The notes: generated by a model from the letters alone, not told the origin. 64,000 bases of DNA from Candidatus Solincola daggyaiensis (GCA_015711825.1 JACVJD010000001.1:333-64332); one strand, 5' to 3'. Shown: positions 800 through 21,204, numbered from the stretch's first letter. Made by a program: numbers and translations.

Positions 800-1834
800 T
801 CAGGCGAGGGGGAGGTTCGCGGAGGCATCCACCTCCAGGGACGACACCTCGCCCTCTTGCAGCATGCGCCATCCTAGGGCAGCGATCATGGCCGCGTTGT
901 CGACGCACAGGTTCATGGGCGGATAGTAAAGCCTTATCCCTCGCCTGGACAGCTCAGCCTCCAACCTCTCGCGCAGGCTGCGGTTGGCGGCCACCCCTCC
1001 CGCCAGCACTACCCTTTGCACCCCTCTCTCCAGCGCCGCGCGGGTTATCTTGTGCACCTGCACGTCCACCACCGCCGCCTGGAAGGAAGCGGCGATATCG
1101 GCGACTCTCACCTCTTCTCCGCTTTCCCTCAGCTTCCTGACGTGGTTTATCACCGCCGTCTTCAGCCCCGATAGCGAGAAGTCGTAGCCGTGGTCCCTCA
1201 TCATGGCGCGCGGGAAGCGCACCGCCGCCGGGTCGCCCTCGCGTGAGATCCGGTCTATCTCCGGCCCTCCCGGATAACCGAGACCCAGATACCTCGCCAC
1301 CTTGTCGTACGCCTCCCCGGCGGCGTCGTCCAGGGTCTCCCCCAACACCTCGTAACGTCGGTGCGCCGGCACGTGCACCAGCATGGTGTGGCCGCCGGAG
1401 GCCAGAAAGGCGAGCACAGGAGGTTCCAGTTCCGGAAAATAAAGGAAGTTGGCGTATATGTGCGCTTCCAAGTGGTTCACTGCCACCAGGGGGATATCGA
1501 GGGCAAACGCCAGCGCTTTGGCGGCGGTCAACCCCACCAGCAGCGCGCCGATGAGACCCGGCCCTCGCGTCACCGCCACCGCGTCCAGATCGCATGGCCC
1601 GACCTGCGCGTTATCCAGCGCCATCTGCAGCGCCGGGAGCATGGCCTCCAGGTGCGCCCTGCTCGCGAGCTCGGGGACCACGCCCCCGAAGCGCCGGTGC
1701 ACATCCGCCTGGGAGGAGATGACCAGGGAGAGCGTGTCCCTCCCGCCCCTCACCACCGCGGTCGAGGTCTCGTCGCAGGAGGTCTCGATGCCCAGAACGA
1801 GACCCTTTCCTCCCTTACCGTCCTCTCCCGTCAT
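800..1834 (-). CDS. tsaD: tRNA N6-adenosine threonylcarbamoyltransferase TsaD (Kae1/Gcp)
   Basis: LVLGIETSCDETSTAVV ... HLEAHIYANFL ... GGVAANRSLRERL, which is the TsaD family. The ORF track extends 130 codons upstream in GC-rich frame; trimmed to ATG at 1832-1834 (MTGEDGKGGKGLVLGIETSCD). Confidence 0.9.
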   Translation of the reverse strand: MTGEDGKGGKGLVLGIETSCDETSTAVVRGGRDTLSLVISSQADVHRRFGGVVPELASRAHLEAMLPALQMALDNAQVGPCDLDAVAVTRGPGLIGALLVGLTAAKALAFALDIPLVAVNHLEAHIYANFLYFPELEPPVLAFLASGGHTMLVHVPAHRRYEVLGETLDDAAGEAYDKVARYLGLGYPGGPEIDRISREGDPAAVRFPRAMMRDHGYDFSLSGLKTAVINHVRKLRESGEEVRVADIAASFQAAVVDVQVHKITRAALERGVQRVVLAGGVAANRSLRERLEAELSRRGIRLYYPPMNLCVDNAAMIAALGWRMLQEGEVSSLEVDASANLPLA

Positions 1835-1845
1835 GCGCCTCGACC

Positions 1846-2349
1846 TTACCCCGCGTTTCCGTATCTCTCCCACAACCCCTCGAGCAGTCGCCGGTACTCC
1901 GGAGTGGTGATATCGTCCGTCCACATGATGAAGGCGTTCTCCAGGTTGTCGAGATAATAGTGCTTGCGTTCTCCCATGATCTGGAATCCGAAACGCTCGT
2001 AGAGCTCGATGGCGGCGAGGTTGGACCTCCTCACCTCCAGGGTCAGGAAGCGCGCCCCCTTCTCCTCCGATCGCCGCACCAACTCCAGCAGCAGCCTGGC
2101 CCCGATGCCGCGGCGGCGCCGATCCTCTTTCACCGCCAGGGTCATGACGTGCGCCTCGTCCAGGATCAGAAGGGTGCCGCCGTAGCCCACCAGCTCGCTC
2201 CCGTACCTGGCGGTCACGTAACAACCCTCGGGTTTCTCCAGCTCGCGCAGGTACATATCCCTGGTCCAGGGGCTGGCGAAGGCCTTTCTCTCCAGTTCCA
2301 GGACCTCCGCCAAGTCCTCCTCGCCCATCTCGCCCATCACCAGGCGCAT
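1846..2349 (-). CDS. rimI: ribosomal-protein-alanine N-acetyltransferase (GNAT)
   Basis: GNAT motifs RRRGIGARLLLELV ... NLAAIELYERFGF; conserved position between tsaB and tsaD. Trimmed to internal ATG MRLVMGEMGEED. Confidence 0.8.
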   Translation of the reverse strand: MRLVMGEMGEEDLAEVLELERKAFASPWTRDMYLRELEKPEGCYVTARYGSELVGYGGTLLILDEAHVMTLAVKEDRRRRGIGARLLLELVRRSEEKGARFLTLEVRRSNLAAIELYERFGFQIMGERKHYYLDNLENAFIMWTDDITTPEYRRLLEGLWERYGNAG

Positions 2350-3050
2350 CTCTTCTCCTCTCCCATCCGTCCCACGTCGGGACGCCTTAGATAGAGCGGC
2401 AAGAGCTCGTAGGGGTCCGCGATGTCTCCGCGCTCCGCGGCCTCGCGACACAGCCGCGCCAGCCCCCCCGCTCCCGGAGGCTCGCTCGCCGCCACCACAA
2501 GTCCTTGAGGCCAGACATGCGCATAGGCGTCTATAGCGGTGCCGGTGAGAACCACCTCTCCATGCGCGCGCTCCAGACATATCGCCAGATCGGCGGCCGC
2601 CTTTTCCGGGGCGGCGACGCCGGGCTCCAGCAATCTCTCCAGGCCGCCGTCCCCGATGCCGTAAGCGGCGTAATAGACCTCACCCCTGCGTGCGTCCATG
2701 GCCACGAACGCCTCGCGGGCGGAAATCCCGATCCCCGCCGCCCTCACCGCCAGGCTTTCCGGCGCCACCAGCGGCACCCCCAGGGAGAACGCAAGGGTCT
2801 TGGCGGCGGTCACCGCCACCCGCACTCCGGTGAAGGACCCGGGGCCCCTTCCCACCCCCAGAAGGGCGACGTCTTCCCTGCCTATCCCGGCCTCCTGCAT
2901 AAGGGCCTTTACCTCGGTAAACAGGCAGGCGACACGCAGATGTCCCGCGATCTCGCGCCATAGGGTTCCGCCGGGTCCCTCCAACACCAGCACCCCCATG
3001 GGGGTCGAGAGATCGAAGGCCAGCAGCCACCCCCCCCTCGAGCCGCTCAC
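2337..3050 (-). CDS. tsaB: tRNA threonylcarbamoyladenosine biosynthesis protein TsaB (YeaZ)
   Basis: WLLAFDLSTPMGVLVLEG ... GPGSFTGVRVAVTAAKTLA, the YeaZ/TsaB family. GTG start at 3048-3050 preferred over the upstream ATG at 3095; overlaps rimI start by 13 nt. Confidence 0.8.
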   Translation of the reverse strand: MSGSRGGWLLAFDLSTPMGVLVLEGPGGTLWREIAGHLRVACLFTEVKALMQEAGIGREDVALLGVGRGPGSFTGVRVAVTAAKTLAFSLGVPLVAPESLAVRAAGIGISAREAFVAMDARRGEVYYAAYGIGDGGLERLLEPGVAAPEKAAADLAICLERAHGEVVLTGTAIDAYAHVWPQGLVVAASEPPGAGGLARLCREAAERGDIADPYELLPLYLRRPDVGRMGEEKRCAW

Positions 3051-3407
3051 CGCACCTATTCCCCTTTCACCAGAAACCGCCTCGCACCGGACCATGCAAC
3101 CGTCTCAACGCCGAACCGTGGCCGGCAATCCGACGTCAAGGGGACTCGCGCATCTCTCTCACGATAGCACTCCGTCATCTGCGCCTTGACGCCGGTCCGC
3201 CTACCGCTCGCCTGTCCTCTCGCCGGGGACGGCCTTCCGGGTTGCGCCATGCGGGCCCCCGTCCTGCTTTTACCGGCCACGTCAACGCCACCATAGGCGG
3301 CGATTCCGCGCTGTCCCGATCCCTCCCCGGCCCAGGACGGGACGCTAAGAGAGCCTGGGCCGCCGTCTCCCCCCTCGAGGACACCCCTTCCCGACACCGC
3401 CATCCCC

Positions 3408-3926
3408 TCACCCCCAAGGCCTCACCGTCTGCGAACCGCCGCCCCAGGCTTCCCTCAATCCCGTCACCCTCTCCCCCCAGCTTCCGCCCAGGGGCACGAA
3501 GAGGACGCGTCTCTCCTTTTCTCCCTCGCCATACTCCATTCTCACCTCGAGGTAGGGGGGGCGGAAAAAGCCCTTTACCCTGTCGCCCCATTCCACCGCC
3601 AGCACCGCGTCTCCCTCCAGGTACTCCTCCACCCCTATCTCGTAGAGATCGAGCGGACCCTCCAGGCGGTAGGCGTCGAGGTGCACCAGGGAAAGCCTGC
3701 CCCGGTACTCCCGCAGGAGGGTGAAGGTGGGGCTGGTTACCCTTCCCTTGACCCCAAGTCCCCTGGCCATTCCCTGCACGAAGGTGGTCTTTCCGCTCCC
3801 CAGCTCACCTTGCAGCAGAAGCACGTCTCCCGGCCGCAGGGCCTTGGCCACGCGCATGCCGAGATCCCGCATCTGCGAGGCGGAGCGGGTGGTCACCTCG
3901 AGGGTATCCTCGGCGTAAGCGCTCAA
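3408..3926 (-). CDS. tsaE: tRNA threonylcarbamoyladenosine biosynthesis ATPase TsaE (YjeE)
   Basis: P-loop LLLQGELGSGKTTFVQGMARGLG and SPTFTL motif typical of TsaE. Confidence 0.8.
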   Translation of the reverse strand: MSAYAEDTLEVTTRSASQMRDLGMRVAKALRPGDVLLLQGELGSGKTTFVQGMARGLGVKGRVTSPTFTLLREYRGRLSLVHLDAYRLEGPLDLYEIGVEEYLEGDAVLAVEWGDRVKGFFRPPYLEVRMEYGEGEKERRVLFVPLGGSWGERVTGLREAWGGGSQTVRPWG

Positions 3927-4393
3927 GACCTCTCCCGTCCTTTTCCCTCCAAGACCGTCACCGCGTCCATCGCATCTCCGCCCCGTTAAATTCGGGGGTT
4001 CAGGCCATCATCCACGGAGGCAGCGAAAACACCGCGCGCCAAAATCTATTCTCCCATGCCGTAAAGCGATCCTCCAAGGCACAAAACGGCCTTCTCCGTA
4101 CCGAAGCTTGTCGATGACCCCGCTCTGCCCGCGTCTCAACCAAGCGAGCCGTGTACACAAATACCGCCAACGCCATGTGACTAACGTGCTTTCCTTTATC
4201 CCCACCGCCTCCCCCTTACGTCCCCCGCGTTAGGCCATCGACGCTTCTCCGCCCATGAGCCCGCGATGGTGAGTCCCGAACGACGTTTCATGCCCTGCCC
4301 GCGTCCTCCTCGCGCTCTCGCATGCCAGGCGGCCTCTTCTCCGCTCGGTCGTGTTCGGGGTTTGCGGCTCGGGGACAGGCGGCGCAGGCCGGC

Positions 4394-5065
4394 TCAGAAG
4401 AAGCCCATCTGCTCCGGCTCGGATACATCCGCCGGCTCCGCGGGTTCCGCCCGCGACGCCGCTCCAGACACCGTCTCCCGTTCCCATCGCGTCCTCTCGG
4501 CCTCCAGGTGCTCCTTCAGCCTCTGGAAATCCTCGATGAGCACGCTTTTTAACGGCGGTTTGTGAAGGGCGGCTGCGGGATGAAACAGGGGGACATAGGC
4601 AAGGCCGTCCCTGTGCAGTAGCTTGCCGTGGAGCTGGGTGATGCCGGTGCCGGTCTTGAGCAAGGTCTTGGTGGCGTGATTGCCCAGGGTGCATATGATG
4701 CGCGGCGCGATGATCTCTATCTGCTTGAACAGATAAGGGGTACACATCTTCAGCTCATCGGGCTGCGGATCGCGGTTGTCGGGCGGCCTGCACTTGAGGG
4801 TGTTGGCTATATAAACCTGGGAGCGCCTCAGTCCGATGGAGGCCAGGAGCTGGTCCAGGAACTGTCCCGCAGGACCCACGAAGGGTATTCCCTGACGGTC
4901 TTCCTGGAAGCCGGGTGCCTCTCCCACGAACATGATGTCCGCGTCCTCGTCGCCCGTGCCCAAGACCAGGTTGGTTCGCGTCTCCCCTAGCGGACAGCGG
5001 CGACAGTCGCGGATGGCCTCGTAGAGCTCCTCTATGGTCGTCGCCTGGCGCCAATCGACTGCCAT
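4394..5065 (-). CDS. uracil-DNA glycosylase, family 4 (Fe-S type)
   Basis: CRRCPLGETRTNLVLGTGDEDADIMFVGEAPGFQEDRQGIPFVGPAGQFLDQLL ... HPAAALH, the family-4 UDG signature. The ORF track's 85-codon upstream extension was trimmed to MAVDWRQ. Confidence 0.8.
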   Translation of the reverse strand: MAVDWRQATTIEELYEAIRDCRRCPLGETRTNLVLGTGDEDADIMFVGEAPGFQEDRQGIPFVGPAGQFLDQLLASIGLRRSQVYIANTLKCRPPDNRDPQPDELKMCTPYLFKQIEIIAPRIICTLGNHATKTLLKTGTGITQLHGKLLHRDGLAYVPLFHPAAALHKPPLKSVLIEDFQRLKEHLEAERTRWERETVSGAASRAEPAEPADVSEPEQMGFF

Positions 5066-5073
5066 GTCCTCCC

Positions 5074-5310
5074 CTAACTGGAGCATCCGGTGCAGCTGGC
5101 GGCGGTGCATGAGCTGCATCCCGAGGAGCCGGCCGAAGACCTGAAATCCCCGGAGGAGGCCGACCCGCTCTTGAAGCCGAAGGTGGAGAAGAGCTTCTTT
5201 ATCCTCTTCTTGCCGCACACGGCGCAGCGCTCCGCCTCGTCGGACATGTTGCGGGCGAAGTGCTCGAAGGTCTCGCCGCAAGCCTCGCACTTGTATTCGT
5301 AAAAAGGCAT
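5074..5310 (-). CDS. FmdB-family zinc-ribbon protein
   Basis: MPFYEYKCEACGETFEHF...CAVCG, the FmdB putative regulatory zinc-ribbon motif; Ser/Gly/Cys-rich tail. Confidence 0.75.
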   Translation of the reverse strand: MPFYEYKCEACGETFEHFARNMSDEAERCAVCGKKRIKKLFSTFGFKSGSASSGDFRSSAGSSGCSSCTAASCTGCSS

Positions 5311-5610
5311 CCCTCATCACTTCCTTTCCGCTTTCTCTCCTTGATTTTAATCACATCGCCCGAGGGCAGGCAACGAGCCGCATCATCTTCAAGCAGGGCG
5401 CCCGACCGTAAAAAGCGAGCTCTCCGGCCGTAACCGGCGCTTGTGGCTGCCGGTCATACCTAAACCGCCCGCTTCTCCCGGCCGCCACCCCCCGCCATTA
5501 TCTTTAACACACCCTTGCGGGAGAAGAACCTCTTGTGATCATGCGCTCCCAAGGCGTGCTCCCGGCCATCGCTCCCGCGAGCCGGGACGTAATTGTCTCC
5601 CCTCTCGCCA

Positions 5611-5665: not shown

Positions 5666-8600
5666 ATGAGCGTGACCGCTTTGCCGCCATCGGAGCGGGA
5701 TAAAAAACGGAGGCTTTGGCCTCTGGCCATCATCGCGTTGGTGCTGGCGGCTTTCTTCCACTCCATGCTCACCCTGTCGAGGGTTCCATGGATATCGGAT
5801 ATAAAGTCATATTATTACCCTGCATGGCGCTACCTCGCCCACGCCTTCCGCTCCGGGGGGCCCTCGCTGTGGTGTTCCGGGATCTATTGCGGCTTTCCCC
5901 TTTTCGCCGACAGCGAGATGGGGCTGTTCTATCCCGTGAACCTTCTCTTCTTCCAGCTCCCGGCCACGGCGGGGTTCAACTACTGCATCATCCTGCATTA
6001 TCTTCTGGGAGGCGTTTTTACCTACATGTACTGCCGGCGCCTGCGGTTGGGCCGCTCCGCCTCCCTTTTCGCCGCCCTGCCGTTTACGCTGGGGGGGTTT
6101 TTTCTGGCACACATGGTGCACCCCAACGCCGTCGCCACCGCGGCTTGGATGCCCCTGTTCCTTTACTGCCTGGAGAGAGCTCTTTCGGAGGGAAAGCCGT
6201 CTTTCCACCTCGCGGCAGGGGGGGTGCTCGGCCTGCAGTGCCTTTCCGGCTTCTTGATGATACCGCTCATGCAGGCGTTGCTGGCTTTTTTCTATCTCCT
6301 TTCCCACTCCTTTGACGAGCAAGGCGACAGGCGCAGGTTTTTGCTCATCAACCTCGCCTGGCTCATCCTGGCGCTGGGGCTGGGGGTTTGCCTCGGCATG
6401 GTGCAGAACCTGCCCAGTTACCACCTGGTCCAGAACTCCTACCGCGCCGGCGGGCTGTCGGAAAAAGTGGCCGGTATAGGCAGCATGCCGCCCGCTCAAC
6501 TTCTGGGCATCGTGCTTCCAAGGCTTTTCGGGAGAGGCCTGGCGCAGGGGGGTTACCTGGGGGCTTGGACCTTCGAGGAGACCTACGCATATATGGGCGT
6601 ACTCCCTATCCTTTTCGCCTCCGCGGCGCTGCTGCGGCCGCGCCGCAGGCACGCCGCCTTCTTCTTCTGGATGGGGACGGTCTCGCTTTTGCTCAGCCTG
6701 GGCAGGTACGGCCTGCTCTGGTCGGCATTGCGCCACCTCCCCGGCTTCAACGTGCTCAAGGGCTCAAGCCGCTTCATCCTCACCTTCAACCTCTCCCTGG
6801 CCGTGCTGGGAGGGATGGGGTTCGAGCGCTGGCGCAGCGGAGAGTTCCCCTCCCGCATGGCGAGGTCCCTTTCCCGCGCCTGGTTGAGGGTCGCCGCCGC
6901 CGCAGCCGCGCTGGCCGCCATCCCGGTGCTCCTGTACCGCTTCGACGTCCTGGGGTTCAGGGACCTGGCGGCGGCCGCGGCCAAGCCCTTCCTGGCGGGG
7001 ATAAAGCTTCCGACGCGCCGTGTCCTCGACGGCCTGGTCTCGTTCTTCACCGCCCCGCGCCTGGACCTCCTGCTCCCTCCGGTGATGCTGGCCCTCTTCC
7101 TGCTCCTCATACGCGCCGACGGCGAGGGGGAATACGGACCCAGCCGCCTCAAGGTCTTCATCGCCGTGGGCCTTGCCGTGGTGGACGTTTTCGCCTTCGG
7201 GAACTTCGTGCTCAAGCCGGTTCCCAGGGAACGGGCGGACTTCAAGCCGCAGGTGATCGGCTACCTGAAGGAGAACGCGGGCGACGCCAGGGTGGCCCTG
7301 GCCAAAGAGCCCGGCGTGGATCGCGGCGAGTTCCCCCTCTGCTCCAACCAGCTGCTTCCCTACGGCCTCGAGGACGCCTTCGGGTTCTCCACCATCCCGC
7401 CCGCGCGCCTCGACCGCTTCCTGGCCCTGGTGAACGACCGCCCGGAGGCCTCCGCCTTCGAGCTGCTCGGCGTGGGTTTGCTCTACTCCAACCTCTCCAG
7501 GGTGCAAGGCACCACCTACGATCTGTCCGACCCCTATCCCATTCCCGGCGGCCTGGGCGCGGTGAGCTACGCCTTTCCCTCCCGTACCTCGGGGAGGGAA
7601 CTGCGCCTGCTGGTGGACGGCAGCATCCTGGAGCCGAGCGCCTCCGGACGGCTTTGCTTCAAGTTGAACTCCATCATCAACGGACGGGTGGTGAAGCACC
7701 CCGTCCTTTTCCTGCACAAGGACAGCGGCCCCGAGGAATACTTCCTCGCGGTTATCGACGCGGAGCAGACCGCCTCCTTCGAGCGCGTGCGCTTCCGCTC
7801 ACCCGGCCACGGGGAGGGGCGTGAAGCCTTGGAGATAAGGGTTCCGCTTCCCAGTTTGGGAGAGGCGGACGAGCTCATCCTCACCACCCTCTGCGACCCG
7901 GCCCTCGAGGGAACCCGAATCGCGGCCGTCACCGCCATCGACAAGGACGGGAGGCGCGTTCCCCTCACCGCCTGGCCTTCCGTGTATTGCGACGGCAAGA
8001 ACGCGGTGTACGAACTGCCAAACCGCCTCACCGAGGCATATGCGGCATGGGAGGTCTCCTGGAGCGGAAGCTGGGGGGAAGCGGTGGACCGCGCCTTCCG
8101 CGAGGACCTGGGCATGGGCGAGGTCGTCCTGGTGGAAAGCGAGATCGGCCCCGAAACGCGCAAGGCACTGACCGCCCTCTCCCCTCCCGAAAGGGAGCCC
8201 TCCATCGAGGTGGCGGAGAGCGGAGGCGACGGTATGGCCCTGCGCGTCAGGGGTGACGGCGATTTCATCCTGGTGGTCTCGCTCGATTTCATGCCCGGCT
8301 GGAGGGCCACGGTGGACGGCGAGGAGGCGCCCCTGTTTTCCGCCAACGGCTTCCTTACCGCCCTGCACATGAAGCGAGGAGAACATGTGGTGCTGCTCTC
8401 CTACCGTCCCCCCGGCTTAGCAAGCGGTGCGGCGGTGTCCTCGCTTTCCCTGGCGCTCCTCGTTTTTCTCTTCATGTTATCGAGAAGGAAGGAAGGCCGG
8501 GCGGCGGAGCCGACGAGCCTGGAGACTCCCGTGGCGAGAACAGCCGGCGGGAGCATAAGCGCCTTCTTCCCCTGCTACAACGACTCCGCCACCCTCAAGG

Positions 8601-9247
8601 GTCTTATAGAGAAAGCCCTCGCCGTACTCGACGACCTCGCCGATGACTACGAGGTGATCGTGGTGGACGACGGCAGCGCGGACTCCTCCGGAGAGGTCAT
8701 AGACCAGTTGGCGGCGTCCTACGAAAAGGTACGCGTGGTAAGGCACGACCGCAACCGCGGTTACGGAGCCGCTCTGCGCAGCGGCATAAGGACCTCCACC
8801 AAGGACTGGGTCTTCTACACCGACAGCGACGGGCAGTACGAGGTGGAGGACCTCCGACTGCTGCACGCCATGAGCGGCGATGCGGACGTGGTCAACGGCT
8901 TCAAGACGGGGCGCAGCGACGCCTGGTATCGCAAGTTTCTGGGGTGGGCCTACAACCGACTGGTTCGCTTCGCCTTCGCCATCCCCATCCGCGACGTGGA
9001 CTGCGATTTCAGGCTCATGCGGGGCGAGCTGGTGCGCAGCCTGGATCTCCGCTCGGAGGGCGGGGCCATCTGCGTGGAGCTGGTCAAGGAATTGCAGGCG
9101 GCGGGGGCGGTGTTCGCGGAGGCGCCCGTGGGACATTATCCGCGCGCGGAGGGCAGGAGCCAGTTCTTCCGCCTCAAAAACCTGCTTGTCATGGCGAGGG
9201 AGATTGCGGCACTATGGTGGAGAATGCAGAGGAAAGGGGTGGTGTGA
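5666..9247 (+). CDS. fusion protein: N-terminal YfhO-like polytopic membrane (GT-C type) glycosyltransferase domain + large periplasmic domain + TM helix + C-terminal GT2 polyprenyl-phosphate sugar transferase (DPM1/GtrB/CsbB/ArnC-like)
   Basis: Residues 1-470 have at least 10 hydrophobic helices with a YfhO-like start (SDIKSYYYPAWRYL...GFPLFADSEMGLFYPVNLL). A TM segment follows near residue 925 (LSLALLVFLFMLS). The C-terminus is FPCYNDSATL...VIVVDDGSADSS...YTDSDGQY...DFRLMRGE, a GT2 DXD fold. Good RBS (aaagga) before the ATG; the antisense frames are R/G/P-rich junk. Confidence 0.75.
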   Translation: MSVTALPPSERDKKRRLWPLAIIALVLAAFFHSMLTLSRVPWISDIKSYYYPAWRYLAHAFRSGGPSLWCSGIYCGFPLFADSEMGLFYPVNLLFFQLPATAGFNYCIILHYLLGGVFTYMYCRRLRLGRSASLFAALPFTLGGFFLAHMVHPNAVATAAWMPLFLYCLERALSEGKPSFHLAAGGVLGLQCLSGFLMIPLMQALLAFFYLLSHSFDEQGDRRRFLLINLAWLILALGLGVCLGMVQNLPSYHLVQNSYRAGGLSEKVAGIGSMPPAQLLGIVLPRLFGRGLAQGGYLGAWTFEETYAYMGVLPILFASAALLRPRRRHAAFFFWMGTVSLLLSLGRYGLLWSALRHLPGFNVLKGSSRFILTFNLSLAVLGGMGFERWRSGEFPSRMARSLSRAWLRVAAAAAALAAIPVLLYRFDVLGFRDLAAAAAKPFLAGIKLPTRRVLDGLVSFFTAPRLDLLLPPVMLALFLLLIRADGEGEYGPSRLKVFIAVGLAVVDVFAFGNFVLKPVPRERADFKPQVIGYLKENAGDARVALAKEPGVDRGEFPLCSNQLLPYGLEDAFGFSTIPPARLDRFLALVNDRPEASAFELLGVGLLYSNLSRVQGTTYDLSDPYPIPGGLGAVSYAFPSRTSGRELRLLVDGSILEPSASGRLCFKLNSIINGRVVKHPVLFLHKDSGPEEYFLAVIDAEQTASFERVRFRSPGHGEGREALEIRVPLPSLGEADELILTTLCDPALEGTRIAAVTAIDKDGRRVPLTAWPSVYCDGKNAVYELPNRLTEAYAAWEVSWSGSWGEAVDRAFREDLGMGEVVLVESEIGPETRKALTALSPPEREPSIEVAESGGDGMALRVRGDGDFILVVSLDFMPGWRATVDGEEAPLFSANGFLTALHMKRGEHVVLLSYRPPGLASGAAVSSLSLALLVFLFMLSRRKEGRAAEPTSLETPVARTAGGSISAFFPCYNDSATLKGLIEKALAVLDDLADDYEVIVVDDGSADSSGEVIDQLAASYEKVRVVRHDRNRGYGAALRSGIRTSTKDWVFYTDSDGQYEVEDLRLLHAMSGDADVVNGFKTGRSDAWYRKFLGWAYNRLVRFAFAIPIRDVDCDFRLMRGELVRSLDLRSEGGAICVELVKELQAAGAVFAEAPVGHYPRAEGRSQFFRLKNLLVMAREIAALWWRMQRKGVV

Positions 9248-10294
9248 ATGGGCGAGCTCGCCCCGCTGCGCGAAAGCTACTCCGGAAAACGCGTTCTGGT
9301 CACGGGAGGACTGGGGTTCATCGGCAGCGGACTGGTGCGGAGACTGGTGCGCATGGGAGCATCGGTCACCGTCATCGACGCATGCTTTCCCGACCAAGGC
9401 GCCAACCTCTTCAACCTAAAAGGCGTGCTCGACGAAGTTGCTCTGGTGGTCGCCGACATCGGGCGCGTCGACGACATCTCCGCCTACATAGTGGATCAGG
9501 ATTACGTCTTCAATCTGGCCGCCTGTATCAGCCATGTGGGCTCGTTGCGCGACCCCCTTCGCGACCTCGAGCGCAATTGCGTAAGCCAGCTGCGCTTCCT
9601 CGGCGCCCTCACGGAACTCAGCCGGGGGGCGCGAGTGCTGTACACGGGCTCGCGCAGCCAGTACGGAAGTCCCCTCTACACTCCCATGGACGAGGAGCAC
9701 CCCTTGAGGCCCGTGGACTTCAACGGCGTTCACAAAACGGCGGTGGAGGAATACCACCGCATCCTTCACGGGCTGGACAAGCTGCGCTTCACCTCCCTGC
9801 GACTGACCAACATCTACGGACCCAGGCACCAGATGCACCACGACGGGCAGGGCTTCCTCAACTGGTTCATCCGCCAAGCCCTGGCGGGCCAGGAGCTGTG
9901 CGTCTATGGGGACGGCACGCAGAAACGCGACTTCCTTTACGTTGACGATGCGGTGGAGGCCATCCTTCTCGCCGCCTCGGACCCACGTTGCGAGGGAAAG
10001 GTCTTCAACCTCGCCTCGGGCTTTCCCGTCAGCGTGGCGGAGGCGGCGGCGGTCATATGCGAGGTTTCCGGAAACTCCTATCGCTGCGTGCCCTACCCTC
10101 CCGACGCGGTGGCGGTGGAGCCCGGGGACATCCACCTGGACGGCTCGCGGCTGCAGGAACTGCTCGCTTGGAGGCCCCGGGTCGAGCTTAGGGAGGGGAT
10201 CGAGAAGACCCTTTACTTCTACCGTCGCCACGGCTCGCGCTATTTCCATGAGGGAAAGGCGCGCGTGGACTTGAAAGCGGGTGCCATGGGATGA
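9248..10294 (+). CDS. NAD-dependent epimerase/dehydratase, extended SDR family (UDP-sugar decarboxylase/4-epimerase-like)
   Basis: Rossmann motif VLVTGGLGFIGSGLVRRLV, SRSQYG and K(TAVE) motifs. Its ATG overlaps the upstream stop (TGAATG). Confidence 0.8.
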   Translation: MGELAPLRESYSGKRVLVTGGLGFIGSGLVRRLVRMGASVTVIDACFPDQGANLFNLKGVLDEVALVVADIGRVDDISAYIVDQDYVFNLAACISHVGSLRDPLRDLERNCVSQLRFLGALTELSRGARVLYTGSRSQYGSPLYTPMDEEHPLRPVDFNGVHKTAVEEYHRILHGLDKLRFTSLRLTNIYGPRHQMHHDGQGFLNWFIRQALAGQELCVYGDGTQKRDFLYVDDAVEAILLAASDPRCEGKVFNLASGFPVSVAEAAAVICEVSGNSYRCVPYPPDAVAVEPGDIHLDGSRLQELLAWRPRVELREGIEKTLYFYRRHGSRYFHEGKARVDLKAGAMG

Positions 10295-10365: not shown

Positions 10366-11517
10366 ATGGGCGAGACCACCGTTCCCTTCCTGGACCTCTC
10401 GCGCCGGGACGAGGAAATGCACGCCGAGGTCTCGGAGGCCTTTGCGCGCGTGCTGCGGGGGGGAAGGTTTATTCTGGGCCCCGAGGTCTCCTCCTTCGAG
10501 GAGGAGTTCGCCTCCTACTGCGGGGTGAGGCATGTCATCGGCGTGGCCTCGGGCACGGACGCCATCGTCCTCGCCCTGAAGGCCCTGGGCATATCCCCCG
10601 GAGACGAGGTGATCACCACGGCTCTTTCCGCTCCCCCCACCGCGGTCGCCGTGACCCTGGCGGGCGGCCGCCCGCTCTTCGTCGATATAGACCCTGCAAG
10701 CCGCTGTATAGACCCCAGCGAGGTCGAGAAGTCCATCGGCCCCCGCACGCGCTTCCTTCTCGTCGTGCACCTTTACGGGCGCCTGGCGGATATGGAAGCG
10801 CTTTCCAGGATCGCCCGCGAACACGAGCTGCTGGTGGTGGAGGACTGCGCCCAGGCCCATGGAGCCCGGGCGGGAAACAGGTCGGCGGGCTGCTGGAGCC
10901 GCGCGGGATGCTACAGCTTTTACCCCACCAAGAACCTGGGGGCTTACGGTGACGGCGGCGCGGTGGTAACCGGGGACGCGGAGCTGGCGCAGCGGCTGCG
11001 CTCGCTGCGCGATTACGGGCGCGTCGACCGTGACCTGCTGGCGGAAATCGGCATGAACAGCCGTCTTGACGAGCTGCAAGCGGCCCTTCTTCGCGTCAAG
11101 TTGCGGCGCTTGGAAGCCTGGAACCGCCGGCGCCGCGAGCTGGCGCGCCGCTACCAGGAGGGGCTTGCGGACCTTCCCCTCGACCTCCCTTCCTGGGATG
11201 GGGATGAGGACCATTGCTTTCACCTCTGGGTAACGGGATGCGAGGAGCGTGACGCGCTGCGCTCATACCTGGGAGAGAAAGGCATCGAGACCGCCGTGCA
11301 CTATCCCGTTCCCCTGCACCTTCAGAAGCCCTACCTGGTGGGGGGAAGGCCGGTCTTCTCCTGCCCGGAGGCGGAGCGTTTCTGCGCCCGTGCCCTCTCC
11401 CTCCCCCTGTATCCCTACCTGTCAGACCGCGAGCAGGAAGCGGTCATCTCCGCGGTGAGGGAGTTCTACCGCCGCCATCGAACGTACGCGTGCGGGGGAA
11501 ACGCGGCCAGAACCTGA
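10366..11517 (+). CDS. DegT/DnrJ/EryC1/StrS-family PLP-dependent sugar aminotransferase (ArnB/WecE-like)
   Basis: FEEEFASYCGVRHVIGVASGTDA ... SFYPTKNLGAYGDGGAVVT (PLP lysine) ... MNSRLDELQAALL. Confidence 0.85.
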   Translation: MGETTVPFLDLSRRDEEMHAEVSEAFARVLRGGRFILGPEVSSFEEEFASYCGVRHVIGVASGTDAIVLALKALGISPGDEVITTALSAPPTAVAVTLAGGRPLFVDIDPASRCIDPSEVEKSIGPRTRFLLVVHLYGRLADMEALSRIAREHELLVVEDCAQAHGARAGNRSAGCWSRAGCYSFYPTKNLGAYGDGGAVVTGDAELAQRLRSLRDYGRVDRDLLAEIGMNSRLDELQAALLRVKLRRLEAWNRRRRELARRYQEGLADLPLDLPSWDGDEDHCFHLWVTGCEERDALRSYLGEKGIETAVHYPVPLHLQKPYLVGGRPVFSCPEAERFCARALSLPLYPYLSDREQEAVISAVREFYRRHRTYACGGNAART

Positions 11518-11524
11518 TGCGCCT

Positions 11525-12052
11525 TCAGAGGTAAGTGGTGAGGCGCTTGCAGTCCATCTTGCGCGGCTGCACCTCCTCGCGCGCGGGGTATCCCACCGGC
11601 ACCAGGGCAAGGGGCCTTATGTCCCTCGCCAGGCGCAGCGCCCGCGTCACCTCATCCTCCCGGAAAGCCCCCACCCAGCACGCGCCCAAGCCCAGGGCGG
11701 TGGCGCAAAGAAGCAGGTTCTCGATGGCCGCTGCGGTGTCCTGCACGGCATAGAGCTCCACCCCCCGCCTGCCGTAGGAAGCCGCGTGGGCGGCCAGGTC
11801 GGCGCACACCACTATGACCACGGGGGCCTCCGCCAAGAAGGACTGCCCCAGCGCCGCCTCGGCCAGCCGCACCCTCAAGCCCGCGTCGCGCACCACCACG
11901 AAGCGCCATGGTTGCACATTGCCGGCGGAGGGCGCCTGACAGGCGCATCGCAGGAGCTCCTCCACCAGCTCCATCGCCACCTCCCTGCCGGCGTCGAACG
12001 ATCGCACGCTACGCCTTTTCTCCATGGCCTCGAAGACGTCCATCGCGCACAC
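11525..12052 (-). CDS. nitroreductase family protein
   Basis: KRRSVRSF ... APSAGNVQPWRFVVV ... classic NADH/FMN nitroreductase motifs. Confidence 0.8.
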   Translation of the reverse strand: MCAMDVFEAMEKRRSVRSFDAGREVAMELVEELLRCACQAPSAGNVQPWRFVVVRDAGLRVRLAEAALGQSFLAEAPVVIVVCADLAAHAASYGRRGVELYAVQDTAAAIENLLLCATALGLGACWVGAFREDEVTRALRLARDIRPLALVPVGYPAREEVQPRKMDCKRLTTYL

Positions 12053-12055
12053 CCC

Positions 12056-13003
12056 TCATACCAGGTCGGCGTGGGCCGGTATGCCCGCAACTCCCTCCGC
12101 GTGCAACACCGCGTTGCGAACCGCCCGCGCCATGAGCACCGCTCCCAGTATACCCACGGTGTCCGCAGCCGCCTCCACCTGGCCGGTCGCGGCCGCGAAC
12201 ACCAGGTCGCCGTCCAGCTTGGTATGGCTCGGCGATACGGCCCTGGCGAGGCCGTTATGCCCCCTCTGGGCAACCCAGTTCACGTCCGTTTTTCCCAATC
12301 GCGCGTTGGTCACTATGACCCCCAGGGTGGTGTTGGTGAGAGGAGGGACGCCGCCCCCGCCAAGGGCCGTCTCGATGCACGCTTCCGTGCACGCGAATCC
12401 TCCCTCGGGCAGGCGCGCTCCCGCCAGTATCCTGCCCTCTTCGTCCACCACGTCTCCGAAGGCGTTGACCACCGCCATGGCGAGGATTTTCAGCCCCCCG
12501 CTCTCCATGAAGGACGTTCCCAGCCCGCTCTTGGTGGCGTTGGCGGGACCGAGCATCATGCCCACCGTGGCGCCCATTCCCGCCCCCACGTTTCCCTGGC
12601 GCGTGAGGTCCTCGCTCGCCTCCAGGCAGGCACGGTACCCCATCTCCGCGTCCGGCCTGGCGCCGGCGTCGCCCACCGCCAGGTCGAAGATCACCGCCGC
12701 GGGGACGATGGGCACACGTGCCACCCCGGTGTCGAAACCGATGCCCCGTTCCTCCAGAAAACTCACCACACCCGTCGCCGCCGCCAGCCCGAAGGCGCTG
12801 CCGCCCGAGAGCACGAAGGCATGAACCTCCTCCACTAAGTTGACGGGGTTTAGGAGGTCGGTCTCGCGTGTACCCGGGGCGCCTCCCCTCACGTCCACGC
12901 CGCCTCGAGACCCCGGCGGCAACAGCACCACGCTGCAGCCCGTGAGCCCCTTTTCGTCCTGTGCGTGCCCAACCCTCACGCCATCGATCCTGAAAACAGC
13001 CAT
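12056..13003 (-). CDS. P1/S58 family peptidase (DmpA/L-aminopeptidase D-Ala-esterase/amidase-like)
   Basis: GVRVGHAQDEKGLTGCSVVL...GTRETDLL...VLSGGSAFGL...TTLGVIVTNARL, which is DmpA/ArgJ-like. The start ATG at 13003 has a strong RBS (aaggagg); the 20-codon upstream extension was rejected. Confidence 0.75.
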   Translation of the reverse strand: MAVFRIDGVRVGHAQDEKGLTGCSVVLLPPGSRGGVDVRGGAPGTRETDLLNPVNLVEEVHAFVLSGGSAFGLAAATGVVSFLEERGIGFDTGVARVPIVPAAVIFDLAVGDAGARPDAEMGYRACLEASEDLTRQGNVGAGMGATVGMMLGPANATKSGLGTSFMESGGLKILAMAVVNAFGDVVDEEGRILAGARLPEGGFACTEACIETALGGGGVPPLTNTTLGVIVTNARLGKTDVNWVAQRGHNGLARAVSPSHTKLDGDLVFAAATGQVEAAADTVGILGAVLMARAVRNAVLHAEGVAGIPAHADLV

Positions 13004-13215
13004 GTAAACCTCCTTGCGACCATAAAACCGCCTTGAGCCGGGAAAGCCGGGTTTTATCATCACGCCCTATCCGAGATCTTTAAACCCCCAGTTTCTCCAC
13101 CCCGCGAACCATGCGGCGGGCACCGCAAAAAGCCCTGATGTCCTATCCCCTTCCTTCCCCGCAAGGCGCAATCGCCCCCGGTTCGCGCTTATGGTCTTGA
13201 CGGCTACACGCCCTT

Positions 13216-14637
13216 CTAGTCCGTTTGGCTCAGCAGGTCTCTCACGAACCTCAGGGCATCCTCCCTGCCCTTAAGAGCTCCCTCCATCTGGGCTACGCGC
13301 ACTTCCTTGAGTATTTCGCCTATGAACGGTCCCTCCATGAGGTTGAGTTCCTTTATGAGATCCCTTCCCATGATCAGCGGCGGAGTGTCCTGTTCGCGGC
13401 GGTACTCATCCAGCAAGTGCGCACAGAAGGCCGTGTAGCGTCGCAGCTTTTCGGGTGTGGACAGGGTTCCCCGAGTGGCCTGGCGGTCCGCGGCGGACAG
13501 CAGCACCACGTCCACCAGCTCCTCGCCCAGTCGAGCGATGAGGCGGCGTAATTGTCTCCGTGAGGGTCGATCGGCCATGGCCAGCCCGATATCCATGTGA
13601 CCTCCCACCACGTTGACGATATAGTCTCCCGCCCTGCGCGAGAGCCTTAAGCGCCCCACCAGCTCCACCGCCGCCTCGCGGCTGTGCTTCTGATGGGAAT
13701 AGAAATGGATTCGACCCGAGGCGTCCCGCGATACGGTCTCCGCCTTGCCTGCGTCATGGTATAGCGCCGCGAGGCGAAGGAAAGCCTTGCGCGGATAAAG
13801 GTCCTGCAGCGGTTCCTCCAGGCGCTCCCGCACATCATCGGCGTGCCCGGGAAAGAGCGTTCCCGGATCGGCGATTATGCGGTCCAGCTCCTCCAGGGTG
13901 AGCAGGGTATGCGACCAAACGTCAAGATGGTGGTAGGCGTTCTGCTCCAAGCCCACCAGGGGAACGAGGTGCGGGAACACGTATTGCATGAGTCCGGTGG
14001 CCTCGAGGTCCGCGAAGATGGGTGCGGTGTCGGGTATAAGCAGGGTCTCCAGCAGTTCCACCGCCACCCGCTCCCCCGGCGCCCTGGTGACGAGGGGAGC
14101 GTATTTCTTCATATGATTGAGGGTGCGCTCATCGTATTCCATATCCAGGACATGCCGGAAGCGCATGGCCCTCACCAGGCGCACCGGGTCCATGAGAAAG
14201 GACTCGTTGGAGCATTCCCTCAGTATCCCCCGGGAGAGATCCCTCCAGCCGTAATGTTTATCCACCAGGTCACGCGGCAGACGCAACCCCCCCGCCAAGA
14301 GCCTATCCACGTCCAGGGCCATGGCGTTGACGGTGAAGTCGCGGTAGGAAAGATCCTCTTCGATGCTCATACCTCTGATGGGAGAGAAGTCTATGGTGCG
14401 CCTGCCTTCAGCGCCGTCCTCCACCACCACGCGATGGGCTCTCTCCTCCTCATGCAGGATGAATGCTTTGCCGCCGAAGCGCTCCGCCACCTCACGCGCC
14501 AAGCCTTCGGGGTCCGCAGCGGTGACGAAATCGATGTCGGCGGGCGGTGCGCCAAGCAAAAAGTCCCTTAGATAGCCGCCCACCAGGTACACCTCTCCTC
14601 TATGTAGGGAGGCCAGGAAGGGCATGAGCGATCCCAT
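13216..14637 (-). CDS. cca: CCA tRNA nucleotidyltransferase with HD domain
   Basis: YLVGGYLRDFLLG...DIDF...RDFTVNAMA (pol beta NT head); HD region HLDVWSHTL...YHDAGK. Start placed at M45 of the ORF; it could be 14769. Confidence 0.8.
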   Translation of the reverse strand: MGSLMPFLASLHRGEVYLVGGYLRDFLLGAPPADIDFVTAADPEGLAREVAERFGGKAFILHEEERAHRVVVEDGAEGRRTIDFSPIRGMSIEEDLSYRDFTVNAMALDVDRLLAGGLRLPRDLVDKHYGWRDLSRGILRECSNESFLMDPVRLVRAMRFRHVLDMEYDERTLNHMKKYAPLVTRAPGERVAVELLETLLIPDTAPIFADLEATGLMQYVFPHLVPLVGLEQNAYHHLDVWSHTLLTLEELDRIIADPGTLFPGHADDVRERLEEPLQDLYPRKAFLRLAALYHDAGKAETVSRDASGRIHFYSHQKHSREAAVELVGRLRLSRRAGDYIVNVVGGHMDIGLAMADRPSRRQLRRLIARLGEELVDVVLLSAADRQATRGTLSTPEKLRRYTAFCAHLLDEYRREQDTPPLIMGRDLIKELNLMEGPFIGEILKEVRVAQMEGALKGREDALRFVRDLLSQTD

Positions 14638-15036
14638 AAAGGGGTCCGCCTTTTCCAGGTCGCCCAGATCCAGGGTAGTAGGCAGGGATCGCAAGCTATC
14701 TCCTTCGCCGTCCCGCACGGTAAGATCCCTTTTAGCGCCAACATTATAACCCATGGGCGGCAGGCTCAAGCTGGCAAGCCCTGAGCCCGCATGAAAAGCG
14801 GTGCCGGGGCGCCGCGGGGAAACGGCCTATCCGCCTCCAGGCCACACGCCGCGGTGAGACTTCGACCACGCTCAAGGTGCGCGGAAACCGTCGTTCGGCC
14901 CACCTACTCATAAGATGCTGCGAAAAATGCTCGCTCTCCGCGCGCCGCCTCCTCCTGCGCAAAGCTTTTCTCGCTTCGAACAAGCCGAGGGGGTCCGGCT
15001 CGCAGGCAGGAGCGTTTACGCGCGGGTCACGGACCC

Positions 15037-15059
15037 CTTGCCCCTCTCACGGGGGCAAG
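15037..15059 (-). terminator. GC-rich hairpin 17 nt downstream of the zinc-ribbon gene stop (possible terminator, no U-tract)
   Basis: cttgcccc-tctcacg-ggggcaag, 8-bp stem, 7-nt loop. Confidence 0.25.
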
Positions 15060-15075
15060 AGCGTAAAGGCGGCGC

Positions 15076-15495
15076 TCAGTCCCGCGTCCAGTAAACGCGG
15101 GCGAAATCGGAATGGTGCTGCCACTGGATATCCAGGTGTCCCGAGTAGGCCTTCTCGAATTCCTTTCCCAGCCTTTCCGCCAGGGCGCGGTCGGTGGTCT
15201 CTATGACTATCTCGTCCTTCTTCTCCTCTATATGGTATATGCGCGCGGCGATGTTCTTGCGCAGCTTTTTCTGGGCCACGCTGCGTATGAGGTTCTTAAC
15301 CTCTTCACGGTGTTTGTCCACGAAGTCCCCCCTGAGATAGACCACGCCGTCCACCTGACCCCGCGCCACCCTTTCGCACCCCGGGCATAGATGCTTCTCC
15401 CACCCGTTGCCCTTCATAGCCTTCTCGCGCACGGGCTCGTTGAAATCCCACCTTTGATCGATGCAGACGGCATAGCAGGACGGACATATCTTCAT
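15076..15495 (-). CDS. hypothetical protein with N-terminal C4 zinc-ribbon
   Basis: CPSC...x29...CPGC then a charged K/E/R-rich domain; no family recognised from memory. Confidence 0.55.
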   Translation of the reverse strand: MKICPSCYAVCIDQRWDFNEPVREKAMKGNGWEKHLCPGCERVARGQVDGVVYLRGDFVDKHREEVKNLIRSVAQKKLRKNIAARIYHIEEKKDEIVIETTDRALAERLGKEFEKAYSGHLDIQWQHHSDFARVYWTRD

Positions 15496-15722
15496 GTCTC
15501 CGTACCTCCTTGGGGCTCCGCGCCAACATGGACTCTAGAGAGCAAGGTCAGCACCGCCTCATAGACCACCCCCGCACATTCCTCGCGGTTGGAAACGCTC
15601 AAAATGTGTGCCTTTCTTGGCGCCTCCCATATAGTTAATCCTACCCCACCCACACTCACATAAACCGCGACGCACTCGTTTGAGCCCTCCGACCCGCTCG
15701 GTGGGACCACGGCCTTCTTTCC

Positions 15723-16877: not shown

Positions 16878-16905
16878 CTTCCCACCTCCCTCCGCTTCGC
16901 TTTCC

Positions 16906-21203: not shown

Positions 21204-21204
21204 C

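Follow-up and report, generated by a model that had tools for sequence, protein, structure and literature searches.

A natural fusion of a YfhO-family GT-C glycosyltransferase with a GT2 domain in Candidatus Solincola, a likely make-and-use pair for surface glycosylation

The Arn pathway (ArnA/ArnB/ArnC/ArnT) adds L-Ara4N to lipid A. In Bacillus subtilis, Staphylococcus aureus and Listeria, CsbB and YfhO together with the flippase GtcA glycosylate teichoic acids with GlcNAc (PMC5836110, PMC8035078). Streptococcal proteins are O-glycosylated by the Pgf (PgfS, PgfM1, PgfE, PgfM2) and GtrB/PgtC2 systems (PMC12041528, PMC5856776), and the acceptors in these streptococci are Ser/Thr-rich disordered regions. 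The pairs CsbB/YfhO, GtrB/PgtC2 and PgfS/PgfM1 have been linked experimentally (PMC5836110, PMC8035078, PMC12041528). In Mycobacterium tuberculosis, Ppm1 (Rv2051c) is a fusion protein that combines an Lnt domain with a polyprenol-phosphate-mannose synthase domain (PMC3460810). In the literature we searched, no natural GT-A/GT-C or YfhO fusion was found described, the matches to "fused" being PCR methods only, and nothing relevant concerned Arn-like systems in Actinobacteria or Chloroflexi.

Here, we describe such a fusion in a window of 64,000 nucleotides of Candidatus Solincola daggyaiensis (GCA_015711825.1 JACVJD010000001.1:333-64332; the window is the whole stretch of DNA analysed, and positions are counted from its first letter). 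The gene, its parts and the two genes downstream are as follows.

5666..9247, + strand: fusion gene, 1193 codons plus TGA (ORF list and translation)
5666..7210, + strand: YfhO GT-C membrane module, residues 1-515, with a K/R-rich cytoplasmic N-terminus and 13 helices read from the model
5798..5800, + strand: codon of Asp45, candidate GT-C catalytic acid, in the first outside loop just past helix 1
7211..8416, + strand: YfhO extracytoplasmic beta-rich domain, residues 516-917 (AlphaFold2 strands, Pfam YfhO)
8417..8506, + strand: last YfhO membrane helix (helix 14), residues 918-947 (AlphaFold2 helix)
8507..8554, + strand: flexible linker, residues 948-963 (pLDDT <50 at 951-956)
8555..9244, + strand: GT2 (GT-A fold) domain of the polyprenyl-phosphate glycosyltransferase type, residues 964-1193
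8822..8830, + strand: DxD motif, D1053-S-D1055, aligned to ArnC 100-DADLQ-104
9248..10294, + strand: extended SDR, 348 aa (Pfam Epimerase, 4e-45)
10366..11517, + strand: DegT/DnrJ/EryC1 sugar aminotransferase, 383 aa (Pfam, 1.5e-110)

As in the CsbB/YfhO system, a presumably cytoplasmic GT2 of GT-A fold is paired with a YfhO-family GT-C protein encoded side by side with it, and the YfhO part has many membrane helices, an outside domain of ~400 aa and a last helix. Yet here YfhO and GT2 follow each other, in that order, within one polypeptide, whereas in Bacillus csbB precedes yfhO. The GT2 part also lacks intrinsic membrane helices, genes for an SDR and an aminotransferase accompany the fusion in its operon, and no GtcA/GtrA gene was found near the fusion in the 64-kb window. 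We think it likely that the gene is a natural fusion of two glycosyltransferases for lipid-carrier-mediated extracytoplasmic glycosylation of the CsbB/YfhO, PgfS/PgfM1 or ArnC/ArnT type; most likely, it is a make-and-use pair in one chain, through which an amino sugar is attached to the surface. What is fused is a known system; the machine is not of a new kind, and the known paradigm is unchanged.

The reading frame 5666..9247 runs from ATG to TGA without interruption and translates into 1193 aa. GC content peaks at codon position 3 in 11/11 windows of 300 nt along the ORF, and one coding frame therefore extends throughout; the pattern stays uniform across the junction between YfhO and GT2. 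The fusion protein is 100% identical to a protein (P0001) of the NCBI MAG GCA_015711815.1. Pfam recognises both YfhO (55.2 bits for a cut-off of 28.5) and Glycos_transf_2 (93.4 bits for a cut-off of 23.3), and the AlphaFold2 model has a mean pLDDT of 91.7 and a pTM of 0.81. The intact frame and the two Pfam domains uphold the GT-C::GT2 fusion claimed in a first-pass annotation of this DNA. The motifs that it quoted are all in the translation: SYYYPAWRYL at residues 48-57, GFPLFADSEMGLFYPVNLL at 76-94, LSLALLVFLFMLS within helix 918-947, VIVVDDGSADSS at 997-1008 and YTDSDGQY at 1051-1058.

One might suspect that adjacent yfhO and GT2 genes were joined by an indel error during sequencing or assembly. 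Related genomes do carry split versions: in sister lineages YfhO and GT2 are two overlapping adjacent genes in the same neighbourhood, and the stop codon of YfhO and the start codon of GT2 in L006, a split orthologue, lie exactly at the linker position. However, the homologous fusions that the first-pass annotation had proposed to look for are numerous. The full-length fusion is found end to end in about 40 protein clusters with 34-100% identity, drawn from NCBI, JGI, ENA and Logan assemblies; 15 retrieved loci also read through it. Since these clusters come from independent assemblies, the fusion is not a frameshift artefact, and this conservation speaks against the stop or frameshift named in the annotation as fatal to its claim. 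The artefact is further contradicted by the codon-position pattern over the junction and by a rough NJ tree in which the split lineage nests among the fused ones. This nesting suggests that the split lineage arose by secondary fission. There is next to no chance that the fusion is an artefact, and we regard this reading as effectively refuted.

The named genome matches of the fusion are Candidatus Solincola and Geothermincolales MAGs, and all members of the fusion clade come from uncultured organisms. When 1.84 billion proteins were clustered at 50% identity and the 150 best-scoring representatives examined, only three had YfhO followed by GT2 end to end. One apparent stand-alone GT2 orthologue of 233 aa (P0130) was rejected as a sign of an unfused form, being the mis-called tail of a fused ORF of 1195 aa.

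The first 947 residues make up a whole YfhO-family GT-C enzyme. The layout of the family is present in the AlphaFold2 model, with a polytopic module, a large outside domain and a final helix (918-947), and the 516-917 strands have pLDDT mostly >90. Likewise, the last two helices of B. subtilis YfhO are separated by an extracellular loop of 389 aa (PMC5836110). Pfam YfhO matches in two stretches, the C-terminal of which covers model positions 774-835 of 835 and aligns to residues 864-925; the C-terminal regions of PgfM1/PgfM2 align from residues 865-867 onward. Stand-alone relatives consisting of YfhO only (P0041) align in a single stretch, from residue 17 to 936, and P877, G878, W879, A881, D884 and G885 of the outside domain are kept among relatives. 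The first-pass annotation had described an unusual architecture in four parts, but there are really two, YfhO (1-947) and GT2 (964-1193). The outside domain and the single last helix, which it took for oddities, form the C-terminal half that YfhO proteins normally have; the one unusual feature is the added GT2 tail. The polytopic N-terminus that it delimited stands, but ends at ~515 and not at 470, leaving 516-917 to the outside domain in the AlphaFold2 model. According to the literature, this domain is probably the part that binds the acceptor (PMC8035078).

Fold searches match the membrane module to AftD and EmbB, indicating a GT-C fold; this link came only from fold searches, and no YfhO relative of solved structure turned up when the PDB was searched by sequence. 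Among 87 aligned YfhO relatives, fused and unfused, D45 is an aspartate in 85, and R124, H111, R260, E305 and R369 are also conserved. Because an acidic motif in one of the outside loops is the general rule for GT-C enzymes (PMC5836110), Asp45 is a candidate for the catalytic acid. The D82/E84 pair highlighted earlier is only moderately conserved (59/87 and 46/87), and it is D45 that provides the near-invariant acid of the first outside loop.

A Kyte-Doolittle scan with a threshold of 1.5 gave only 9 membrane segments, and we used the AlphaFold helices and the charge distribution instead. Secondary structure in the model and the positive-inside rule lead to a topology of 14 helices, where K+R make up 15/62 residues of the inside loops vs 17/189 of the short outside loops. 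Helix 918-947 has a hydropathy of 1.77 and is directly followed by RRKEGR. In this model the GT2 domain would be cytoplasmic and the YfhO loops outside, the arrangement claimed in the first-pass annotation, and it fits the coupled make-and-use enzyme that was proposed there. Helix 14 would bring the chain back to the cytoplasm and tether the GT2 domain.

The GT2 domain has both a GT-A fold and a DxD motif, which corresponds to the motif 100-DADLQ-104 of ArnC (bioRxiv 10.1101/2024.07.30.605912). The DxD is invariant in 38 fused homologues, as are DDGS and D1110/D1112/D1114/R1116. The top matches in fold searches are DPMS, ArnC and GtrB, and ArnC is the best sequence match in both the PDB and NCBIfam. 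Two interface helices of the AlphaFold2 model, 1087-1104 and 1170-1189, align to IH1 (134-153) and IH2 (213-229) of ArnC, which bind lipid phosphate at the membrane surface (bioRxiv 10.1101/2024.07.30.605912). A processive synthase was considered and rejected: the domain ends after the interface helices and no QxxRW-type motif was seen when the sequence was inspected by eye. In NCBIfam, the domain is far under every equivalog cut-off, e.g. 77 vs 529 bits for ArnC, with further scores of 48.7 vs 500 and 45.4 vs 370, and by these models it is not an orthologue of a named enzyme (ArnC, PgfS, PpgS, AglJ). This counts against our preferred reading. It also leaves some room for a GT2 that is not a polyprenyl-phosphate glycosyltransferase, acting on a small phosphorylated metabolite, as GpgS and MpgS do, or on a membrane glycolipid, with YfhO working on an independent substrate. 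But the identity of the best fold matches, the alignment of the two post-core helices with the lipid-phosphate-binding helices of ArnC, a membrane tether through a linker of only about 16 residues and the consistent genetic linkage with GT-C proteins make this very unlikely.

The GT2 domain has no membrane helix of its own. The chain ends at residue 1193, directly after the second interface helix, and no hydrophobic segment was found in the domain or in its stand-alone homologues. ArnC and GtrB have two C-terminal membrane helices and archaeal DPMS has four; the helix-less domain resembles instead the subgroup that lacks them, with the Ppm1 catalytic domain and human DPM1. The fusion would give this GT2 subfamily its missing membrane anchor, and would also keep maker and user close together at a ratio of 1:1. 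Might anchoring be the whole story, with the GT2 product used by other enzymes and YfhO using a different donor? The stand-alone homologues without membrane helix are in line with this, as is the end of the chain at the very point beyond which ArnC and GtrB continue with their own helices. Ppm1 is an example of such a synthase domain fused to a membrane enzyme of unrelated function (PMC3460810). It was put forward as a precedent in the first-pass annotation, fairly in our view: it too has an N-terminal polytopic membrane enzyme and a C-terminal GT2 lipid-sugar synthase without membrane helix, and its halves are separate adjacent genes in related species (PMC3460810). Yet its partner is an Lnt acyltransferase that does not use the sugar-lipid, whereas here there is no Lnt but a YfhO/GT-C enzyme that presumably does.

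The distribution of the GT2 family argues against anchoring alone. In several lineages its gene adjoins, or is fused to, that of a GT-C-type protein in varied orders, the pattern expected of functional partners and the one seen in the experimentally linked csbB-yfhO operon (PMC5836110). In Chloroflexota, GT2, SDR, DegT and YfhO are four separate genes. Elsewhere the same GT2 family is fused to GT-C domains of the PMT_2 type, to YfhO with the order reversed or to DegT (GT2::PMT_2, GT2::YfhO and DegT::GT2, in P0273, P0274, P0284, P0262, P0380, P0253 and P0358), with 38-52% identity to the GT2 part; in each case the partner is a further component of the one pathway. YfhO and PMT/PMT_2 are clear GT-C partners, and the matches to GtrII-like and DUF6541 proteins are weak. 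A 579-aa protein upstream of the Acidobacteria cassette (L007) shows neither significant similarity to YfhO (E 0.24) nor a Pfam match. On balance, we consider the anchor-only explanation unlikely. The fusion acts as a natural Rosetta stone, indicating that a YfhO-family GT-C and a GT2 without membrane helices act together, and it carries the CsbB/YfhO logic beyond the Firmicutes, where it is known, into uncultured Actinomycetota that branch deeply.

Downstream of the fusion lie an SDR and a DegT aminotransferase, which the first-pass annotation overlooked along with the split orthologues. The SDR ATG immediately follows the fusion TGA (junction gtgTGAATGggc), and the SDR comes after the fusion in every fused locus that reaches beyond the gene. 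DegT is kept after it across the loci compared, and the order fusion-SDR-DegT persists even at 32-37% identity and in differing genomic flanks. GT2, SDR and DegT occur together in 65/88 loci of many phyla. Our results thus flag a widespread uncharacterised GT2-SDR-DegT cassette whose GT-C partner differs by lineage and through which many little-studied phyla probably attach an amino sugar to their cell surfaces. A scan for promoters and terminators gave nothing exceeding the shuffled expectation.

The operon also resembles the Pgf system in combining a GT2, a YfhO-family GT-C and a nucleotide-sugar-modifying SDR (PgfE), and the NCBIfam models PgfM2, PgfM1 and PgfS give partial matches, all far below equivalog cut-offs. 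However, the proteins of Pgf and GtrB/PgtC2 are separate polypeptides and these systems lack an aminotransferase. With the Arn pathway it shares SDR-type oxidation, a DegT aminotransferase, a GT2 loading undecaprenyl phosphate and transfer outside by a GT-C, at least in the roles we propose. Here, though, the GT-C is YfhO and not the PMT_2-type ArnT, and neither formyltransferase nor deformylase is among the genes called from roughly 3 kb upstream to 10 kb downstream of the fusion. The SDR has S/T135-R136-(Q/S)137, with Asn159 where Tyr is expected, as in 64/67 linked SDRs. Unlike ArnA and UXS, it lacks the T-S-E and Tyr residues, and the site of an ArnA-type UDP-GlcA decarboxylase (T-S-E, Y, K, R) was not found. 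The lack of the canonical catalytic Tyr and of the acid residues of dehydratases and decarboxylases counts against our preferred reading, which needs a keto-sugar for the aminotransferase. Another point against it concerns DegT, whose nearest solved relatives are DesV, QdtB, WbpE and NtdA, which we take to be C-3 aminotransferases, placing it nearer to these than to the C-4 enzymes, unlike in Arn. C-4 enzymes nevertheless come first in its NCBIfam ranking; the ArnB equivalog scores 207.9 vs a cut-off of 631. Since SDR and aminotransferase are part of the operon, the sugar transferred is probably not GlcNAc but a different amino sugar. Candidatus Solincola is predicted to be Gram-positive, and since the host is presumed to be so, lipid A is an unlikely acceptor.

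In the make-and-use reading that we prefer, the amino-sugar nucleotide would be made in the cytoplasm by the SDR and DegT. The C-terminal GT2, which the last YfhO helix would keep at the cytoplasmic face of the membrane, would load it onto polyprenyl phosphate, and the lipid-linked sugar would be flipped by a factor encoded outside the operon. The YfhO GT-C, with Asp45 as candidate catalytic residue and aided by the outside domain, would then move the sugar to a surface acceptor, possibly a glycopolymer of the wall or membrane, or a protein region rich in Ser/Thr. That no ORF for a small polytopic GtrA-like flippase was found in the operon or in the 64-kb window speaks against this scheme. Because no such flippase is encoded nearby, one might speculate that the single polypeptide is a self-contained synthase-flippase-transferase, fed with amino sugar by the Tyr-less SDR and the C-3-like DegT through an undescribed route. 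The YfhO module, or a contact between the last helix and the GT2 interface helices, might then itself carry the polyprenyl-phosphate-amino-sugar across the membrane. We find this rather improbable; if true, the whole route from cytoplasm to surface would lie inside one protein, and an Arn-like surface-modification pathway would extend across Actinomycetota, Chloroflexota, Acidobacteriota and candidate phyla. The fusion could be used to ask whether a separate flippase is needed, and a single, stable hot-spring polypeptide with both active sites would be an attractive cryo-EM target for the arrangement of maker and user. One further protein, P0073, is a GtrA+GT2+PMT_2 triple fusion. Its GT2 is less closely related and its match to the query weak (34% identity over 18% of the query), but it unites all three components of such a system.

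A membrane protein of the YfhO (GT-C) family and a GT2 glycosyltransferase are joined here in a single gene, and two further genes follow on the same strand:

5666..9247 (+), the fusion, an uninterrupted ORF of 1193 aa from ATG 5666 to TGA 9245-9247 (ORF list, translation)
9248..10294 (+), extended SDR of 348 aa, directly 3' of the fusion gene
10366..11517 (+), DegT aminotransferase of 383 aa, after the SDR

The first-pass annotation had worried that a frameshift might lie within the fusion. G+C peaks at codon position 3 (0.76-0.93) in 11 of 11 consecutive 300-nt windows of the ORF, and a single coding frame therefore runs across the suspected region. All peptides quoted in that annotation are at their expected places in the translation. 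Pfam recognises both YfhO (PF09586, 55.2 bits, cut-off 28.5) and Glycos_transf_2 (PF00535, residues 965-1123, 93.4 bits, cut-off 23.3), besides a weak PMT_2 match at residues 106-242. A search for homologous fusions had also been called for, and it was productive. Among 5.8 billion clustered proteins, one from an NCBI MAG is identical to the fusion, and about 40 further clusters (1160-1228 aa, 96-100% query coverage, 34-80% identity) match it and have both Pfam domains; their sources are NCBI, JGI, ENA and Logan assemblies. In the fetched DNA, YfhO and GT2 lie within one stop-to-stop ORF in 15 loci. A scan of GTDB species genomes identified carriers in Candidatus Solincola (tengchongensis, quzhuomuensis and sediminis), whose class is Candidatus Geothermincolia, in Geothermincolales and in unclassified Actinomycetota MAGs. 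This recurrence across clusters, loci and genomes therefore excludes, for practical purposes, an assembly artefact as the source of the fusion.

The protein had been described as four parts, i.e. a GT-C membrane domain, a long soluble region, a single helix and a GT2 domain. Our results reduce these to two, a YfhO protein and a GT2 tail. The Pfam YfhO model has 835 positions, the last 62 of which align to fusion residues 864-925, and the C-terminal regions of the NCBIfam models PgfM2 and PgfM1, streptococcal YfhO-type enzymes, align to residues 865-940. Two stand-alone proteins, P0041 (975 aa, with only YfhO in a Pfam lookup) and P0244 (935 aa, known here from its alignment alone), align in a single stretch to residues 17-936 and 22-937, respectively. 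These alignments thus show that what had been listed as a long soluble region and a single helix forms the C-terminal half usual for a YfhO protein. The sole addition is the GT2 tail of about 230 aa, and by family profile, helix layout and GT-C fold the fusion belongs to the YfhO family. An AlphaFold2 model from 87 aligned sequences (mean pLDDT 91.7, pTM 0.81) gives the following layout:

residues 18-515, 13 membrane helices (read from the helices of the model)
residues 516-917, beta-rich domain
residues 918-947, long helix (helix 14)
residues 948-963, low-confidence linker (pLDDT < 50 at 951-956)
residues 964-1189, GT-A domain

If the 14 helices of this model are taken as the layout, with the N-terminus inside (KKRR precedes helix 1), lysine and arginine account for 15 of 62 residues in short inside loops and for 17 of 189 in short outside loops, and RRKEGR follows helix 14. 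Secondary structure and the positive-inside rule would then put three segments outside: the first loop, which includes D45; loop 244-307, which includes R260 and E305; and the 402-aa domain. The GT2 domain is predicted to be cytoplasmic. The same arrangement, GT2 inside and GT-C loops outside, had been proposed from the sequence. Nucleotide sugars are found in the cytoplasm. Near-invariant residues of the YfhO part among 87 fused and unfused relatives include D45 (85/87), H111, R124, R260, E305, R369, W879 and D884. The D82/E84 pair highlighted in the first-pass annotation is much less conserved, since D82 is kept in 59 and E84 in 46 of these relatives. D45 lies in the first outside loop, directly after helix 1, and from the general rule for GT-C enzymes (PMC5836110) it is a candidate for the catalytic acid of this part.

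In the GT2 part, D1001-D1002, D1053-x-D1055-G-Q, D1110/D1112/D1114 and R1116 are invariant in 38 fused homologues. Its DSDGQ segment aligns to 100-DADLQ-104 of ArnC, in which residues 134-153 and 213-229 form interface helices and two membrane helices come next (bioRxiv 10.1101/2024.07.30.605912). Helices 1087-1104 and 1170-1189 of the fusion align to these interface helices and the protein ends at residue 1193. The domain therefore shares with ArnC the DxD segment and the interface helices, but lacks membrane helices of its own. It has the fold, the DxD and the interface helices of polyprenyl-phosphate glycosyltransferases but no membrane helices of the kind that these enzymes carry, and it reaches no equivalog threshold. 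Stand-alone GT2 homologues of 232-275 aa also have no membrane-like segment.

The TGA of the fusion is directly followed by the ATG of the SDR. The fusion-SDR-DegT trio is kept in every fused locus with enough sequence, including homologues of 32-37% identity with unrelated flanks. The active-site residues of the SDR do not fit a 4,6-dehydratase of the canonical kind or a decarboxylase of the UXS/ArnA type. We compared 67 SDRs linked to the cassette of GT2, SDR and DegT genes (window 9248..10294 and loci L002-L088, from many phyla). In 64 of them Asn replaces the catalytic Tyr of YxxxK, in 60 the Lys is kept, and in all of them position 135 (Ser/Thr) is a hydroxyl residue. The residue after it is always Arg, in contrast to Asp in RmlB and Ser in UXS, and the next one is Gln or Ser, not Glu. 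These proteins look like a distinct, uncharacterised extended-SDR subfamily. The best solved relatives of the DegT protein are DesV (2e-106), QdtB, WbpE and NtdA (down to 1.5e-61), which we take to be C-3 aminotransferases, with ArnB well behind (8.5e-54). The top NCBIfam ranks go to the C-4 enzymes PseC and ArnB, both far below cut-offs. An amino sugar is thus the probable substrate of transfer.

The flanks of the trio are housekeeping genes. Upstream are tsaD-rimI-tsaB-tsaE, a family-4 uracil-DNA glycosylase and a Zn-ribbon gene (window 800..5320, -), and downstream are nitroreductase, peptidase S58, CCA-adding enzyme, alanine racemase, NAD(P)HX repair, glmS and glmM (11525..22740, -). The neighbourhood with tsaE/UDG on one side of the cassette and nitroreductase, peptidase S58 and CCA enzyme on the other recurs in several Geothermincolia genomes. 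A class-I SAM methyltransferase adjoins the cassette of a distant fused homologue (L004:13121-13951) and of an Acidobacteria locus (L007:9964-10809), where it could modify the amino sugar; the window has no methyltransferase of this type.

These elements suggest a pathway. The SDR and DegT proteins would make an amino-sugar nucleotide from a nucleotide sugar. The GT2 domain, held at the membrane by helix 14, would load the sugar onto polyprenyl phosphate at the inner leaflet; after flipping of the lipid-linked sugar, the YfhO module would hand the sugar on to an acceptor on the outside. The fusion would work like a CsbB/YfhO (or ArnC/ArnT-like) pair, fused. Pairings of a GT2 with YfhO or another GT-C enzyme are established by experiment for CsbB/YfhO, with LTA or WTA as target (PMC5836110, PMC8035078), and for GtrB/PgtC2 and PgfS/PgfM1, with Ser/Thr-rich protein regions as targets (PMC12041528). 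Direct channelling between the GT2 and GT-C active sites is impossible without the flipping step, and neither the operon nor the 64-kb window has a flippase gene. An unlinked flippase may do the flipping, or the GT-C module may do so itself, as has been speculated for YfhO (PMC5836110). Most plausibly, the fusion supplies a membrane anchor to a GT2 without membrane helix; it also keeps maker and user together at a 1:1 ratio. Anchoring by fusion recalls Ppm1 of M. tuberculosis, where Lnt is fused to, and anchors, a PPM synthase, the halves being adjacent genes in other species (PMC3460810). YfhO::GT2 is not a Ppm1-type fusion, nor do the fusion and its operon constitute an Arn system. The fusion serves as a useful Rosetta-stone case and would suit structural work well.

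The two halves are also found apart. In a sister lineage with the same tsaE/UDG neighbourhood (L006, L018, L019), YfhO and GT2 have a gene each, the two overlapping, and the gene boundary lies precisely in the linker. This lineage nests within the fused diversity in a rough NJ tree without support values, which suggests secondary fission. In another member, L020 (3854-7507, MAG GMQP.bin.3), the split genes are fragmented, with the YfhO part in three ORFs followed by a separate GT2 ORF; the broken YfhO is either a pseudogene or the product of assembly errors.

Taken by itself, the GT2 domain has a great many small stand-alone GT2 relatives, at 45-57% identity. GT2, SDR and DegT occur together in 65 of the 88 fetched loci, from many phyla including Chloroflexota, Acidobacteriota, Acidimicrobiia, Patescibacteria and Verrucomicrobiota. 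In two Chloroflexota MAG loci (L062:4049-9330 and L081:3941-9280) each of the four parts has its own gene and the order is GT2-SDR-DegT-YfhO; the YfhO is shorter there, at about 760 aa. Elsewhere, the membrane protein adjoining the cassette is PMT/PMT_2-like, weakly GtrII-like, weakly DUF6541-like or without family match. A search of representatives identified the same GT2 subfamily in further, independent fusions: GT2::PMT_2 (P0273, P0274, P0284, P0262), GT2::YfhO, i.e. the reverse order (P0380), and DegT::GT2 (P0253, P0358). One polypeptide of 1155 aa (P0073, L089:6001-9468) joins GtrA, a flippase family, GT2 and PMT_2/YkcB_C (GT-C), and so contains every component of a three-component glycosylation system; its GT2 matches the query weakly. 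YfhO followed by GT2, end to end, occurs in three of the 150 best-scoring representatives (1.84 billion proteins, 50%-identity clusters). No published description of such natural fusions was found in the searchable literature. The databases hold several analogous fusions, and the joining of YfhO and GT2 is unsurprising to a specialist.

In GCA_001768645.1 (MELK01000042.1, L008:4115-7702), the DNA contains an uninterrupted YfhO::GT2 ORF of 1195 aa, and the first 3 kb of this ORF are without a called gene. The public call is a 233-aa GT2 protein alone (P0130), the C-terminal piece of the fusion, with a mis-annotated start.
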